Shown one piece after another: positions 43,263 to 51,069 of a DNA stretch of 59,846 nucleotides (positions within the stretch are counted from its first letter, which is position 1; each line of letters begins with the position of its first letter). The notes beneath the pieces were generated by a model, which saw only the letters and a program-made list of their open reading frames with translations, had not been told where the DNA came from and made no database searches. The position numbers were made by a program, and so were the translations under genes. This stretch comes from a phage, in assembly GCA_011982905.1 (NCBI GenBank), contig GCA_011982905.1_4767.1; one strand, given 5' to 3'.

Positions 43263-44045
43263 TTATTGCGCAGCAAAGTTCGCATATCCCATAACGCATT
43301 CATATACCTCTTCAGGAGTGCGACCTTCCCGTAGATTTATCATCCATTCGTCCAATTGTCCAAGGCGTTGCTGAGCTTTCGTGATGTCATGAAACGCTTG
43401 CCATGGAAAAAAGTTTCCACCAGCTAGTGCAACCTCTATGCCCGTAGCGGCGTTGCCATATGCCTTGAGCTTGCAAACAGGCCAACGTCCACGATTATCC
43501 CAAATTGCGGGTTCCACGTTTTTATCCGGTCGCGAATACCATCTATTTTTAAGCGATGTGATTTCTTTTTCTGTTAACTGCTCACCCTTCGCACGCTCAT
43601 TCTTGGCAAGCCAAACTTTAAACGCGGACTCATTATTTTTATCCTTTGTTTGGCAAACCTTAAAAGCATTCTCATATGGTGCTTGCGGCCCAAACCGTTT
43701 GTAGTAGTCAAACTTGCCGCGGAACTTTGCAACTTCTTTAGTTGTAAGTTCACGATTTTCTTTTTCCTTTATTTGTTCGCGCACCCATGCCATAAACTTA
43801 TCACGCTCAGGGTTTTCTTTTTTTGCAGCAGCTTTTCCATGTTTAACTTTAGGCGTCACATCTTGTTCGCTATCAAAATAATCCTCAACCATCTTAAGAG
43901 CCTGCTCTTTAGTTACCTTTCCGCGGATACGGGAGCACGCTTGCACGACCCAGGCCGCGAAGCACAAATCCTTAACCACATTGGGGTGAGTGCTGGTCGG
44001 CTGTTCTTCCGCCACCGCGTTATTGTTAGTCAGCTCTGTATTCAT
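43263..44045 (-). CDS. hypothetical protein adjacent to the iteron array
   Basis: ATG at 44045 with GGAGG RBS (the tracked ORF extends into the repeat region); 260 aa; no family recognised. Confidence 0.45.
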   Translation of the reverse strand: MNTELTNNNAVAEEQPTSTHPNVVKDLCFAAWVVQACSRIRGKVTKEQALKMVEDYFDSEQDVTPKVKHGKAAAKKENPERDKFMAWVREQIKEKENRELTTKEVAKFRGKFDYYKRFGPQAPYENAFKVCQTKDKNNESAFKVWLAKNERAKGEQLTEKEITSLKNRWYSRPDKNVEPAIWDNRGRWPVCKLKAYGNAATGIEVALAGGNFFPWQAFHDITKAQQRLGQLDEWMINLREGRTPEEVYECVMGYANFAAQ

Positions 44046-44049
44046 ATAG

Positions 44050-44340
44050 CCTCCGATAGGGTATTGTCTTAACCCTATGGTAAGACCCTCCCTATTAAAT
44101 TGCAAGAGTTATTGTAAAACAATAGGTATAGGGTGCAATACAGGGTTCATATAGGGTAACCCTATAAACACCCTATAAAATACCCTCCCTATGCAGCTTT
44201 CTAAATTTATAGTTTTAGTTTACCCCTTGCGCTCCCGCAGAAAAACTAAAGATAGGGGTACTAGGGTATAACAATGGCAAATACCCTATACCCTACTCCC
44301 TATACTATGATTCTAAAAAATTTGGTGTATACCCCTATAA
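44050..44340. repeat. iteron-like array of CCCTATA / TATAGGG motifs, including a 17-bp perfect palindrome
   Basis: About 14 copies of the CCTAT core in both orientations within ~300 bp; perfect palindrome TATAGGGTAACCCTATA at 44150-44166. Confidence 0.6.
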
Positions 44341-44480
44341 ACTTATAAACTTTCAGTCAACTAACTAAAATAAAACTAATTAAACTAATATTAATAATAA
44401 CTATAAATATATATAAAATAAGGATTTATTATTATTGTATATAGTACCTATTGGTATTATGTGATGAGTTTATAGTCACT
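44341..44480. other. AT-rich tract adjacent to the iterons (candidate DNA unwinding element)
   Basis: Roughly 140 bp of very AT-rich sequence (TAAAATAAAACTAATTAAACTAATATTAATAATAACTATAAATATATATAAAATAAGG...). Confidence 0.45.
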
Positions 44481-44682
44481 AAATAAACTCTATAAATTTT
44501 AATAAACCTGAACGGATGCAGATCAAAAACGAGAAGTCAAGTGCTTTTGAGGGAAATTTATTGAACTATTGTGATCGGATGGTATATCAAGCTATAATGC
44601 GCTTAATCGCGGGATATTGGAGGAGGACTTTATTACGCGGTTAACCGGACCAGTAGGAGGGCTGGCCCGGAGAAGTTAGAAT

Positions 44683-46913: not shown

Positions 46914-46992
46914 TAGCACAAAATGCCTAGACAACATGATCGGTCTGGTGGATACTACACACATCAACCAAACAACAACGGAGTAAAACAAA

Positions 46993-47207
46993 TGAAACTA
47001 ACTAAACAAGAGATTGTCAAACGCATCCAGGAATCTACTGGCAGATATGTTGGCAATGGTTTAATTGTTAAAGTTGTGGATTACTCCAATAACCCTTTGG
47101 CTCCGGAGCCAATAGCCTATAAACTGTCTTGGATATGCATGTTTTCAGGTAAACGCGAACGCTGTATGTACTATCCAAACACCGTTGGACTTCAGTCCTG
47201 CAAATAA
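46993..47207 (+). CDS. hypothetical small protein
   Basis: Internal ATG of the tracked ORF preceded by GGAGT. Confidence 0.4.
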
Positions 47208-47287
47208 CTACAATATAACGCACACAGCGCCACGCTAGCGAGCTAATGCACAAAGGTAATGGTAATGCATTAGATCGGGCGAAACAG

Positions 47288-47334
47288 GCGCACAGCGTCG
47301 CGCACAGCTCGCACAGCTCGCACAGCGCACACAG
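47288..47334. repeat. GC-rich short tandem repeat (GCACAGC x4 plus one degenerate copy)
   Basis: Copies at about 47290, 47302, 47311, 47320 and a GCACACAG variant; local GC content far above the window average. Confidence 0.6.
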
Positions 47335-47683
47335 ACCCACGCAGGCCCAGCCGCGCGACCCAACCCATCCTTTTCCAGGTACTTGGATCGCCGGGGCGTG
47401 CCCTGTCCATCCTGATAGTATCCTTGTTTGAAAATCTAACTCGTCAACTATGTTGTTGCCGACATACACACCCATCACTTTACTATCCACCACATCCATG
47501 ACCCCACCTACCTTCTTTTTGAATATATTGCGCTCATCCTTTCTAAATATATGGATTTTGGTAGTAAATTCTGAGTCGTCAACGTATAATTCGTCTTGTA
47601 GCTGCTCCATAGCTATCATCTTTAAGCGGATGCAACCAATTTCTATGAATTCACACCCGTTTTAGAGCATCAAGGAGGTATTT

Positions 47684-47935
47684 ATGTGCGACACCAGTGC
47701 AAGCGCTACACCCAGCACCTCCAGCAATGTGGTTACAGAGGTAAATGCAATGCGATTAGGTCCATATCGCGGCTATTACGGTCGTGCTGCATGGAATGAC
47801 GCTACTCAACGTTTTGAAGGCTGGATTATCTGCCCGGAACGTGTTAAATTTCACTCCGTAAAAGAGAAAAATATCGTTCTTAATTTTCAAAAATGTGTCA
47901 CTAAATATGTAGAGGAGCAAGAAGAATGCGTGTAA
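47684..47935 (+). CDS. hypothetical small protein
   Basis: 83 aa; strong AAGGAGG RBS. Confidence 0.5.
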   Translation: MCDTSASATPSTSSNVVTEVNAMRLGPYRGYYGRAAWNDATQRFEGWIICPERVKFHSVKEKNIVLNFQKCVTKYVEEQEECV

Positions 47936-50416: not shown

Positions 50417-50602
50417 ATGACCAAACTATACGCCGGATTGTTTTTATTTGCGACGTTAATGTTCGCTGGGCTTTATACCTATACAGTAGTCGAACAACCT
50501 TCCACGGTTATCCGAATCTTTGCAAGTACAGGGCTTTGCATCTGTCTTATTCTATTTGTTTTATGTATTGTTATTATCCAAGACCAAAGGAAAGTTAAAT
50601 GA
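50417..50602 (+). CDS. small membrane protein (2 TM)
   Basis: 61 aa, two hydrophobic helices. Confidence 0.4.
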   Translation: MTKLYAGLFLFATLMFAGLYTYTVVEQPSTVIRIFASTGLCICLILFVLCIVIIQDQRKVK

Positions 50603-51069
50603 CTGAAGAATGGAAAACAATACCTTTATTTCCAAAGTATGAGGTTTCCACTTTAGGTAGAGTTAGGAGGGCTAACAACCACAAAATATTGACCGGATGC
50701 ATATTAGATGGTCGTAGACGTTATACTTTGCGTCACAATGGTAAGAAATACGGTGTTGATGCTGCAAGATTGATGTGTTACGCATTTCGTGGTCTTGTCG
50801 ACGGTTATGAGAAACTAGATGCACGACATCTTGATGGCAATCCTTTGAATAATGTATTATCTAACGTAGATTGGGGTACACGTAAGGATAACATGGTGGA
50901 CATGGTCCATCATGGTAACGCTTGTCATTCGTTTACAAAGGAAGAAGTTCTAAGTATCCAGCAAAGAGCAGATGCTGGGGAAAGTCAACACGCTATAGCA
51001 AGAAGTATTGGCAGAAGCGTATCCGTTGTTAACTGTATTGTATTAAGAAAGACTTATAACGAATATTAA
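50599..51069 (+). CDS. HNH homing endonuclease
   Basis: 156 aa; N-terminal EWKTIPLFPKYEVSTLGRVRR (NUMOD4-like) and HNH core ARHLDGNPLNNVLSNVDWGTRKDN. Confidence 0.7.
   Translation: MTEEWKTIPLFPKYEVSTLGRVRRANNHKILTGCILDGRRRYTLRHNGKKYGVDAARLMCYAFRGLVDGYEKLDARHLDGNPLNNVLSNVDWGTRKDNMVDMVHHGNACHSFTKEEVLSIQQRADAGESQHAIARSIGRSVSVVNCIVLRKTYNEY

Follow-up and report, generated by a model that had tools for sequence, protein, structure and literature searches.

A conserved non-coding spacer of Seuratvirus that most likely ends one rightward transcript and starts the next

Stem-loops at the 5′ end, as in leaders of the ompA type, stabilise bacterial and phage mRNAs, and RNase E shows 5′-end dependence. 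The locus discussed here resembles such leaders in having a 6-bp hairpin that lies 1-2 nt past the predicted start and is kept by compensatory changes; it differs in that the start site is a predicted one and the hairpin is weak (-8.6 kcal/mol, including the next hairpin). The resemblance to Rho-dependent terminators (e.g., lambda tR1) consists of an untranslated C-rich tract of ~80-110 nt after a gene cluster, with small hairpins within 150 nt and with composition rather than sequence conserved. In this phage, however, no nut-like boxA/boxB pair was recognised by eye, and the tract starts 230 nt past the stop codon, behind an atypical GC-rich segment. Two kinds of replication origin also share features with the locus. 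As in R-loop origins and primers (ColE1 RNA II; T4 oriF and oriG), a promoter-like site faces a C-rich template and the transcript would be G-rich and, as in origins that combine iterons with a DUE (lambda ori, plasmid iterons), short repeats occur with an AT-rich stretch nearby and a GC-skew minimum. Moreover, the locus recalls the insertion sites of free-standing homing endonucleases: relatives carry an HNH/homing-endonuclease gene at exactly the same place, where it stands in mosaic surroundings instead of the right module and of codons 1-22 of the downstream gene. It differs from such sites in that this phage has no endonuclease gene at the locus.

The genome is that of a Seuratvirus (Queuovirinae), and the window is the whole stretch of 59,846 nucleotides that was analysed. 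The spacer lies between two plus-strand genes, which an earlier note on this DNA had called well supported and which both have PHROG matches: 46992-47207 matches phrog_16587 (E = 4e-31), and 47684-47935 matches phrog_24875 (E = 5e-61). The product of the latter is conserved in 40 phage records, and its gene diverges by 6.2% at third codon positions versus 1.7% at first and second positions; its RBS (AAGGAGG) and ATG occupy 47672-47686 on the plus strand, as judged from the sequence, the ORF list and the PHROG match. The bounds given earlier, 47208-47683, hold for the stretch between the genes, while the conserved element itself runs from 47215, 8 nt past the upstream stop, to the RBS at 47672-47678. 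Homology with all relatives begins at 47215 despite differing upstream genes. The left edge is formed by conserved block 1 (ATAACGCACACAGCGCC, 47215-47231, plus strand), and this block is also kept in STP-SP5, a Salmonella phage, and in yong3, a Hafnia phage. The interval 47215-47683 is kept in more than 30 relatives, and the diversity sampled comprises E. coli phages together with STP-SP5 and yong3. Two pattern scans of viral contigs recovered three close relatives, and a protein-anchored scan via the downstream gene recovered the same three; a metagenome scan with TRTCYATYCTGATAGTA gave one true homologue among 120 loci, the pattern being too degenerate. Searching 5,426 complete E. coli genomes with the region gave no match, and a literature search for transcriptomes and for promoter or origin maps of Seuratvirus or Queuovirinae found none. 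An apparent homology to a 640-bp gap that is unannotated in Providencia phages PSTCR7 and PSTCR4, and looks similar by eye, was withdrawn because the region profile finds nothing there at E <= 10 with filters off; these gaps share the general layout only, that is, a non-coding gap with heptamer copies.

We consider 47215-47683 to be, with a probability of roughly 0.55, a non-coding spacer between two rightward transcription units that would hold a transcript end, a promoter and a leader. Transcribed from a cluster of small genes with its end at 47207, the upstream mRNA would run into a stable stem-loop at 47239-47277. Further on, the untranslated RNA would turn C-rich and G-poor at 47435-47546, the type of tract on which host Rho loads, so that read-through would end within the next ~150 nt. 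A TATAAT promoter (47585-47590) would then restart transcription at ~47597, and the 5′-terminal stem-loop at 47598-47616 is expected to shield the new mRNA from 5′-end-dependent decay; a second small hairpin and the strong RBS for gene 47684 would follow. Of the options that the earlier note had listed, a regulatory element is thus the favoured one, with conserved blocks, two plus-strand hairpins showing compensatory or G-U changes, and a promoter-like site suitably spaced from the next gene in its favour.

Conflicting ORFs do exist on both strands, as had been noted: one on the minus strand (47068-47619) and two on the plus strand (47246-47431 and 47450-47665, the latter of 71 aa). The minus-strand ORF overlaps gene 46992-47207 on the plus strand, and its ATG is not preceded by a Shine-Dalgarno sequence (upstream CGCTTAAAG-ATG), and plus-strand ORF 47246-47431 (61 aa) is indeed of low complexity. 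The hidden small gene that had been suggested on these grounds is unsupported on either strand by ORF sets, substitutions or indels. The 99 distinct substitutions among 16 phages have a synonymous fraction of 23-33% per frame over the six frames, versus a random expectation of 19-28%; 11 of 13 indel events in the same phages are not divisible by three, and their consensus has 2-11 stop codons in every frame. The ORF set changes from phage to phage, and annotators of related genomes disagree, giving no CDS, plus-strand CDSs of 58-208 aa or minus-strand CDSs of 42 aa. One continuous conserved ORF, the finding that would have spoken for a gene, is absent: KS_W4, KurtStettler and Seurat have long CDSs annotated on the plus strand, with frame and length varying between phages. 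The ORFs of the region have no match in Pfam or PHROGs, and tblastn against 50,697 phage records returned only the same locus in Seuratvirus. These comparisons indicate that 47215-47683 encodes no protein.

The 183-aa minus-strand ORF (47068-47619), for which neither Pfam nor PHROGs gives a match, is spurious and open in this phage only, owing to a private 1-nt deletion: in relatives one more T, placed between 47491 and 47492, stops the frame after 45 codons. A hidden minus-strand gene was rejected given the private ORF, the lack of a family or homologue and the non-coding substitution pattern. The 61-aa plus-strand ORF (47246-47431), which starts inside a hairpin, is likewise regarded as spurious. 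It shows no excess of synonymous changes, each relative has a different length (58-133 aa) and C-terminus, STP-SP5 lacks the ORF, and another frame is read in yong3. That the locus nevertheless makes one or two small proteins, from the 45-aa minus-strand ORF (MxAMEQLQDELYVDDSEFTTKIHIFRKDERNIFKKKVGGVMDVGG) or from the plus-strand ORF beginning at 47246, is scarcely credible. In most relatives that infect E. coli both ORFs are open, and some records annotate them, but all hand-checked substitutions in the 45-aa ORF are non-synonymous (I/V, Q/K, E/G, S/L, R/C, D/Y), CAjan is frameshifted, and the end is altered in KS_A8. Moreover, neither ORF occurs in STP-SP5 or yong3 despite the conserved DNA, both are without a Shine-Dalgarno sequence, and no family match or homologue beyond the genus was found.

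The DNA is conserved all the same. STP-SP5 shares 69% identity over 324 nt, versus 39-58% at third codon positions of neighbouring homologous genes, and among close relatives 47280-47359 and 47556-47635 diverge by 1-3%, versus 6.2% at third positions of the downstream gene. Sequence comparison thus indicates that the region is under constraint. Its left half is unusually rich in G+C, as observed before: 47219-47418 has 62% G+C versus a genome mean of 44.5% (sd 4.9) and is the second highest 200-nt window of the genome (top 0.3%). The GCACAGC repeat described there is real, with exact copies at 47290, 47302, 47311 and 47320 (spacings 12, 9 and 9) and, after the fourth, a variant CACACAG at 47328. 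Two arrays are returned by Tandem Repeats Finder, one of period 9 at 47301-47334 (3.8 copies, 92% matches, consensus CGCACAGCT) and a looser one at 47288-47334, and we take 47288-47334 as the extent of the 9-bp repeat, to which no strand is assigned. The whole 59.8-kb genome has 19 copies of GCACAGC versus 9.0 +/- 2.8 expected. Comparing copy number among related phages had been proposed as a check; it gives no sign of hypervariability, the array length being identical in 20 of 20 relatives, while a 9-bp duplication gives this phage alone one unit more than each of them. The repeat is a slippage-type tandem repeat that is weakly variable, given the extra unit here and the constancy of the 20 relatives among themselves. 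It would represent a short tandem duplication within the GC-rich left half, to which this phage probably added one 9-bp unit by slippage.

Upstream of the array, a stem-loop (inverted repeat I1) with a 12-bp stem, one G-A mismatch in this phage and a 15-nt loop occupies 47239-47277 on the plus strand, 32 nt past the stop codon of 46992-47207. It folds with -13.7 kcal/mol in this phage, and relatives reach -19 to -24 kcal/mol (z ~ -4). In STP-SP5 the hairpin persists, with three inner pairs substituted in both arms (GAGCTAGCCC/GGGCTAGCTC). At one position a C/U polymorphism makes the pair C-G in five sequences and U-G in five others, and it fits the plus strand, since the U-G pair is possible in plus-strand RNA only. 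The stem is followed by GGGCGAAACAGG, with no U-tract, and a terminator scan has no plus-strand match in the region. Lacking a U-tract, the stem-loop is more likely a structure that protects the 3′ end than an intrinsic terminator.

This covarying hairpin on the 5′ side, together with the conserved blocks and a high GC content in an AT-richer genome, might suggest a structured non-coding RNA gene on the plus strand over 47215-47430. We regard such a gene as very improbable, and the separate RNA gene that the earlier note had allowed for gains nothing from the searches. Rfam has no match to the region even at E <= 10, a tRNA search of the region was empty, and the folding energy equals that of shuffled sequence (z = -0.18 and -0.11, the former for the proposed gene). 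For long-range structure the covariation term is positive on both strands; the only co-varying structures in the region are two local plus-strand hairpins. For the consensus fold of the proposed gene the covariation term is likewise positive, and STP-SP5 and yong3 do not preserve its pairs; in addition, the scan places neither a promoter before the gene nor a terminator after it, and the module is swapped out in several relatives.

Between the repeat and the C-rich tract lie two well-kept blocks, neither assigned to a strand. Block 4 (CGACCCAACCCATCCTTTTCCAGGTACTTGGATCGC, 47357-47392) is kept in STP-SP5 and yong3 and contains an imperfect palindrome, CCAGGTACTTGG (47375-47386), whose symmetry is kept in yong3 (CTAGGTACTTAG) and SA80RD (CCGAGTACTTGG) and lost in STP-SP5. 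Block 5 (TGCCCTGTCCATCCTGATAGTA, 47399-47420) emerged from the comparison of locus variants; its part ATCCTGATAGTA is present in most variants fetched (SA126VB left out), differs by one base in STP-SP5 and recurs in Skure and GottfriedDienst, where the rest of the middle module differs. In the genome ATCCTGATAGTA has a single exact occurrence. Looser matches to it number 12 versus 3.4 by chance and are scattered in coding DNA on both strands. The repeat and the blocks at 47357-47420 may bind a protein. The idea that the blocks are operators reused across the genome was rejected, each block being single-copy.

From here to the promoter the composition changes. The tract at 47435-47546 (plus strand) is C-rich, G-poor and untranslated, and by its composition it is a candidate Rho loading (rut) site. 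Within it, 47467-47546 (C 30, G 4) exceeds every other 80-nt window of the 59.8-kb genome in its surplus of C over G, and 47435-47512 (C 31, G 6; C/G = 5.2) has regularly spaced cytosines and falls in the top 0.07% of windows. A rut site is described as at least 78 nt of untranslated RNA with C > G and regularly spaced cytosines, followed within 150 nt by a pause hairpin (PMC6407284). The sequence of 47435-47512 agrees with this description, which is an unspecific one, as 46% of all 78-nt windows of the genome have C/G > 1. Hairpins 47598-47616 and 47617-47632 lie less than 150 nt past the tract; their stems are not GC-rich and fit a role in an mRNA leader as well. The C-rich composition recurs in yong3 (C 33, G 3), KS_A8 and GottfriedDienst, so that composition is conserved here and sequence is not: 47400-47479, which includes 47440-47479 of the tract, is the least conserved stretch, with 14-16% divergence among close relatives. 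In the terminator-promoter reading the tract would act through Rho; the unspecific description and the 7-deazaguanine DNA of this phage count against this part of it. Also in this interval are block 6 (CCCCACCTACC, 47502-47512, no strand), just past which the inserted gene cassettes of relatives start, and a 31-bp segment (47438-47468, no strand; alignment columns 259-289). The segment is present in this phage, slur01, SeppeHuegi, phiG7, SD04 and metagenome contig L130 and missing from most relatives, and its start repeats block 7 (AAAATCTAACTCGTCAAC vs AAATTCTGAGTCGTCAAC; repeat family D3).

The right half begins with block 7 (GGATTTTGGTAGTAAATTCTGAGTCGTCA, 47553-47581, no strand), which has a near-palindrome, TGAGTCGTCA, at 47572-47581 and the counterparts TGACTTGTCA in STP-SP5 and TGACTCGTCA in yong3; divergence among close relatives is 1.0% over 47556-47595. 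A candidate sigma-70 promoter on the plus strand (47562-47590) combines a -35 TAGTAA (3/6) and a 17-bp spacer with a -10 TATAAT (6/6). The site is below the scan threshold of 4/6 per hexamer, in a scan that gives 11 sites in 3.5 kb versus 8.7 expected. It is invariant in E. coli phages and aligns with TAGAAA-17-TATACT in STP-SP5. In yong3 block 7 is kept with no obvious -10 at the aligned place; hence, the rightward promoter explains the conservation of block 7 incompletely. At the predicted 5′ end of the mRNA follow two plus-strand stem-loops, GTAGCT-GCTCCAT-AGCTAT (47598-47616) and, directly after it, CATC-TTTAAGCG-GATG (47617-47632). The first helix is paired in 100% of cells; in STP-SP5 both partners have changed in five of its six pairs, and E. 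coli phages have two more changes to G-U. In this stretch, CATCTTTAAGCGGATG is identical in STP-SP5.

Block 7 also covers a candidate leftward promoter, found by the scan with 9/12 matches (minus strand, 47555-47582): a -35 TTGACG (47582-47577), a 16-bp spacer and a -10 CAAAAT (47560-47555). With the aligned sites CTGACA-16-CTAAAT in STP-SP5 and GTGACG-16-TAAAAT in yong3, it is conserved as well as the rightward one. It is possible, though unlikely, that this site drives a G-rich non-coding RNA leftward through 47548-47215, which would serve as a regulatory or antisense RNA, would counter read-through by transcriptional interference or would form a stable R-loop as at ColE1 and the T4 origins. 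Such a transcript accords with the place of its promoter in the best-conserved part of the right half, and with a minus strand that is G-rich over 47300-47599 (plus-strand GC skew -0.33 to -0.34, lowest 0.07% of 250-nt windows) and has G-runs, e.g., GGGTTGGGTCGCGCGGCTGGGCCTGCGTGGG. However, no conserved minus-strand terminator was found, the sole match being weak with its tail in non-conserved sequence, and the minus-strand fold is without covariation. All three single-sided hairpin changes counted (one in the left hairpin and two in the first leader stem-loop) leave a G-U pair in plus-strand RNA, whereas in minus-strand RNA they would produce A-C mismatches. In contrast to R-loop origins, then, the hairpin polymorphisms fit the opposite strand, and the promoter module is replaceable, as it is in phiG7, WildeMaa, SA80RD and Skure. 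The fuller proposal, an active leftward promoter whose G-rich RNA over the C-rich template and the blocks at 47357-47420 would either form a lasting R-loop, priming or regulating phage DNA replication, or act as a genus-specific regulatory RNA, is more doubtful still.

Replication could also start here in another way, if the GCACAGC copies bound a phage initiator and the AT-rich stretch at 47515-47575 melted. About 180 bp beyond the four to five heptamer copies comes an AT-rich stretch of 60 bp that includes a direct repeat of 14 nt, and the region sits at the cumulative GC-skew minimum of the genome (46-48 kb). We hold this iteron-type origin to be highly improbable. The skew minimum coincides with a switch in gene orientation, which accounts for it; unlike iterons, which are spaced at 17-22 bp, the units are contiguous 9-mers, and the array is dispensable, its middle module being replaced in five relatives and absent in Skure. 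A much better candidate lies at 44040-44510, where seven exact CCCTATA sites occur within 213 bp in both orientations, with more if near matches are counted. This array adjoins ~170 bp of very AT-rich DNA and lies in a gap among minus-strand replication genes. An iteron array beside an AT-rich tract at 44.0-44.5 kb fits an origin better, which makes one at 47215-47683 unlikely.

The earlier note had also proposed a recombination element. The locus is mosaic among relatives and carries homing-endonuclease cassettes in some of them; no sign that the repeat itself drives recombination was seen. The middle module is swapped for unrelated sequence in GottfriedDienst, SA126VB, SHIN8, SLUR25 and ECP2304. 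A full-length gene 47684 is always accompanied by the right module. The gene is truncated in five phages, and in four of them (phiG7, WildeMaa, SA80RD and Skure) a homing-endonuclease cassette replaces the right module; the fifth, Dru_SM1, was outside the cassette comparison. The cassettes of phiG7 and Skure, which are those read at sequence level, have a promoter-like site, TGCTAAAAT. The HNH gene of the present phage lies at 50599-51069, and 47215-47683 contains no endonuclease gene.

Two further observations stand against the terminator-promoter reading: 476 bp is long for such a spacer in a compact phage genome, and the best-conserved blocks (47357-47420) and the repeat fall outside the roles that it assigns. 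In our judgement the spacer most likely marks the end of one transcript and the start of the following one, which makes it fairly ordinary. For annotation, the finding bears on no fewer than 15 public Seuratvirus records in which one or more 'hypothetical protein' CDSs of 42-208 aa have been placed here on either strand; the comparative evidence indicates that none of these is a gene. As a lead to the replication origin of the genus, more can be expected of the iteron-like array at 44.0-44.5 kb, and, if the leftward RNA were true, the blocks shared by E. coli, Salmonella and Hafnia phages would be its functional core. The locus would be a non-coding control region shared by the whole genus and placed where the block of small rightward genes begins that precedes the packaging and structural genes, and as such it may be useful for engineering Seuratvirus phages or for reading their transcriptomes.

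The 47215-47683 interval is a genuine non-coding control region between genes, present throughout the genus and made of familiar parts; its terminator and promoter roles are putative. The earlier note had left a choice between a regulatory or recombination element and a hidden gene or RNA. Conserved blocks and plus-strand hairpins argue for a control region, while neither the gene nor the structured RNA is upheld. The window represents all or nearly all of the genome of a virulent siphophage of E. coli, a Seuratvirus (subfamily Queuovirinae), and 35 phage records match a 2-kb stretch around the region at 88-95% identity (top matches: SeppeHuegi, slur01, and Seurat). Minus-strand genes, which according to the slur01 annotation include primase, DNA polymerase, ligase, and RNase H, extend from approximately 19 kb to 45.7 kb. 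Plus-strand genes begin at 46.5 kb, small genes of unknown function being followed by terminase, portal, and head genes; the region therefore lies approximately 0.8 kb inside the rightward gene block. Its neighbors, both on the plus strand, are 46992-47207 (phrog_16587) and 47684-47935 (phrog_24875; "gene 47684"). The latter's protein has no Pfam match at E ≤ 1, and its only PHROG matches are its own unknown-function family and a weak HicB-like one (E = 0.005). In the CSP1C record (L001:1933-2426; L numbers denote loci of relatives), the gene 47684 homologue is named "RNA-binding protein Hfq" and the next gene "antitoxin HicB".

A search with 47150-47700 found the region in 36 phage records, in 22 of them over >80% of its length. 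Homology starts at 47215, a few bases past the stop codon of an upstream gene that varies among phages, and extends as far as the downstream gene's ribosome-binding site. Conflicting ORFs on both strands are present as previously described, but substitutions, indels, ORF sets, and family searches all speak against a hidden small gene. An alignment of 16 phages contains 99 different substitutions and 13 different indel events; in each of the six frames, the synonymous fraction (23-33%) matches the 19-28% expected for random change at those sites. Moreover, 11 of the 13 indels would shift a reading frame, and at least two stops interrupt each frame of the consensus; in a nine-phage alignment, indels of 1, 2, 9, and 31 nt are dispersed through the region. 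The 183-aa minus-strand ORF (47068-47619) is open in the window phage only, since an extra T between 47491 and 47492 in all relatives closes its frame after 45 codons. The plus-strand ORF from 47246 (58-133 aa) varies in length and C-terminus from phage to phage, is absent from Salmonella phage STP-SP5, and is replaced by a different frame in Hafnia phage yong3. Neither ORF has a Pfam or PHROG family, tblastn with the ORFs returned only the same locus within the genus, and E. coli genomes contain no similar sequence. Because the plus strand is C-rich and stop-poor here, chance should produce long ORFs on it, which would also explain why database annotators disagree: nothing is annotated in the slur01, SLUR76, and RCIP0359 records, plus-strand CDSs of 58 to 208 aa in SeppeHuegi, KS_A8, CAjan, Seurat, KurtStettler, and KS_W4, and minus-strand CDSs of 42 aa in CSP1C, OddieOddie, and Greed. 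Hence, the ORFs of the region are artefacts, the longest arising from a private frameshift. The plus-strand CDSs of KS_W4 (208 aa; L168:333-959) and KurtStettler (171 aa; L173:333-848) cross the entire region and extend into the downstream gene or across it; very likely, both are misannotations caused by the same stop-poor, C-rich strand.

Among close E. coli phages, the mean divergence of the region is 5.7%, about that of third codon positions (6.2%); gene 47684 shows a gene-like pattern, with 6.2% at third and 1.7% at first and second positions. The divergence is very uneven, being low (1-3%) at 47280-47359 and 47556-47635 and high (13-16%) at 47400-47479 and 47636-47673. Distant relatives are more telling on constraint. 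STP-SP5 shares 69% identity with the region over 324 nt; its flanking-gene homologues show 39-58% identity at third positions and 47-68% as protein. Blocks common to the E. coli phages, STP-SP5, and yong3 are 47215-47231 (block 1), 47357-47392 (block 4), 47399-47420 (block 5), 47431-47437, 47502-47512 (block 6), and 47553-47581 (block 7), with 47617-47632 common to the E. coli phages and STP-SP5 only. Across lineages, 47357-47420 is the best-conserved sequence of the region. The symmetry of CCAGGTACTTGG is kept in yong3 and SA80RD and lost in STP-SP5. Loose matches to ATCCTGATAGTA (≤2 mismatches) number 12 genome-wide compared with 3.4 ± 2.0 expected, a count reached in none of 100 shuffles; they are dispersed in coding DNA on both strands, and codon bias is a possible cause.

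The GCACAGC repeat was confirmed as a period-9 tandem array at 47288-47334 (consensus CGCACAGCT; exact copies at 47290, 47302, 47311, and 47320), as was the high local GC content: at 62% G+C, against a mean of 44.5%, 47219-47418 ranks second among the 200-nt windows of the genome. Variation in repeat copy number, which the earlier note proposed to compare, was not found among the relatives, as the array has the same length in all 20 that carry it. These have three GCACAGC units or point variants thereof, and the duplicated 9-bp unit is present only in the window phage; this extra unit is one slippage event, and the locus is not hypervariable. The surrounding 47280-47359 diverges 1.9-2.7% among close relatives, placing it among the better-kept parts, and two exact GCACAGC copies occur at the corresponding position in each of STP-SP5 and yong3. 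Thus, the repeat is a small, nearly invariant tandem duplication.

The left (block 1 and hairpin), middle (repeat and blocks 4-5), and right (blocks 6-8) modules are swapped independently. The middle module of GottfriedDienst, SA126VB, SHIN8, SLUR25, and ECP2304 is a different one, without the array, and Skure also lacks the repeat-bearing segment; ATCCTGATAGTA and its surroundings are retained in GottfriedDienst and Skure, the two sequences read. In phiG7 (L012:2505-2978), SA80RD (L013:2345-2827), WildeMaa (L014:2336-2809), and Skure (L017:1968-2441), an HNH/homing-endonuclease gene occupies the locus, and its cassette displaces the right module together with the first 22 codons of gene 47684. 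The homologue then starts at an internal codon (GTG according to the Skure record), and the cassette has a promoter-like site, TGCTAAAAT, in phiG7 and Skure (sequences read). The mosaicism around this locus may be the trace of homing events. No module is indispensable in cis; the right module precedes every full-length gene 47684 copy examined, which fits a promoter-plus-leader role. In SD04, blocks 6 and 7 are separated by 420 bp of inserted DNA that contains small ORFs. Both the phiG7 (L012:2389-2484) and the SD04 (L010:1162-1257) cassette specify a hydrophobic peptide of 31 aa, MSLIGLASAFVLGMVAGAMLMVLIVVLAMRN, which is probably one transmembrane helix; a promoter-like site lies ahead of it (TGCTAAAAT and TGTTAAAAT, respectively). 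The window has its own HNH homing-endonuclease gene (NUMOD4 + HNH_3 + HTH_38) at 50599-51069, 3 kb downstream of the region. Providencia phages PSTCR7 (L042:730-1372) and PSTCR4 (L043:738-1381) have an unannotated gap of approximately 640 bp near the strand switch, with a canonical terminator hairpin and T-run (L042:743-770) and many AATAACA and AACAGTC copies; homology to this gap, alike by eye, was rejected as a profile search gave no significant similarity.

Family searches, folding energy, and covariation gave no long structured RNA. Rfam and ARAGORN returned no match in the region, the minimum free energy equals that of shuffled sequence on either strand (z = -0.18 and -0.11), and consensus folds of both strands have positive covariation terms and are broken in distant relatives. 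Sequence comparison gives good support to two local hairpins, and both are consistent with plus-strand RNA. The first (47239-47277) lies 32 nt past the upstream stop codon; it folds at -19 to -24 kcal/mol in relatives (z about -4) and at -13.7 in the window, where a private mismatch weakens it. STP-SP5 retains it with three inner pairs altered on both sides, and yong3 and the Skure/GottfriedDienst type have other hairpins in its place. One stem position is polymorphic (C/U); it pairs as C-G or U-G in plus-strand RNA, whereas on the minus strand an A-C mismatch would result. Since no U-tract follows, this hairpin falls outside the definition of an intrinsic terminator. In STP-SP5 (L015:1421-1441) and yong3 (L016:1382-1402), block 1 forms the right arm of an extra hairpin directly after the upstream stop (GCGCTGT-7 nt-ACAGCGC; ACAGTGC in yong3, with a plus-strand G-U pair), the left arm of which was lost in the E. 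coli phages along with a different upstream gene. The second hairpin (47598-47616) starts 8 nt past a perfect TATAAT (47585-47590), 1-2 nt past the expected transcription start. All six pairs hold in five distinct sequences, with five pairs altered on both sides in STP-SP5 and G-U changes in two E. coli-phage variants; as all five double changes are in one lineage, the compensation counts as one independent event. Directly after it comes CATCTTTAAGCGGATG, identical in STP-SP5, and the AAGGAGG and ATG of gene 47684 follow 40-50 nt beyond.

Between the two hairpins, 47467-47546 (30 C, 4 G) shows a stronger excess of C over G than any other window genome-wide; genes on this strand are otherwise G-rich. 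Rho utilization (rut) criteria comprise 78 nt with C/G > 1, cytosines every 11-13 nt, and a hairpin ≤150 nt downstream (PMC6407284). The 47435-47512 stretch conforms to these (C/G = 5.2, top 0.07% of windows), but they are unspecific, as C/G > 1 in 46% of windows, and Rho loading is accordingly a tentative reading. The bias recurs in yong3 (33 C, 3 G), KS_A8, and GottfriedDienst, and part of the tract (47440-47479) falls inside the least conserved stretch of close relatives, 47400-47479. Composition kept without sequence is the pattern that a Rho loading site would show.

The region also lies at the cumulative GC skew minimum, as a replication origin might. However, this minimum coincides with the gene-orientation switch, the 9-bp units directly abut one another, relatives can do without the array, and 44040-44510 has a much better origin-like anatomy; for these reasons an origin at 47215-47683 has a low probability. 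The 44040-44510 stretch lies in an unannotated gap of approximately 530 bp between minus-strand genes, approximately 1.7 kb from the primase gene (slur01 coordinates and annotation). Of the genome's 10 exact CCCTATA sites, seven cluster there in 213 bp, facing either way and accompanied by near matches, and a very AT-rich segment of approximately 170 bp comes next; among 250-nt stretches of the window, 44157-44406 has the most negative GC skew. With this classic iteron-plus-unwinding-element anatomy, it is a good candidate for the phage replication origin.

Block 7 covers a leftward promoter-like site on the minus strand (TTGACG-16-CAAAAT, 47582-47555), conserved in STP-SP5 and yong3 to the same degree as the rightward TATAAT site, and a near-palindrome (TGAGTCGTCA; TGACTTGTCA; TGACTCGTCA), which may serve as an operator. 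An active leftward site would produce a G-rich transcript over the C-rich template.
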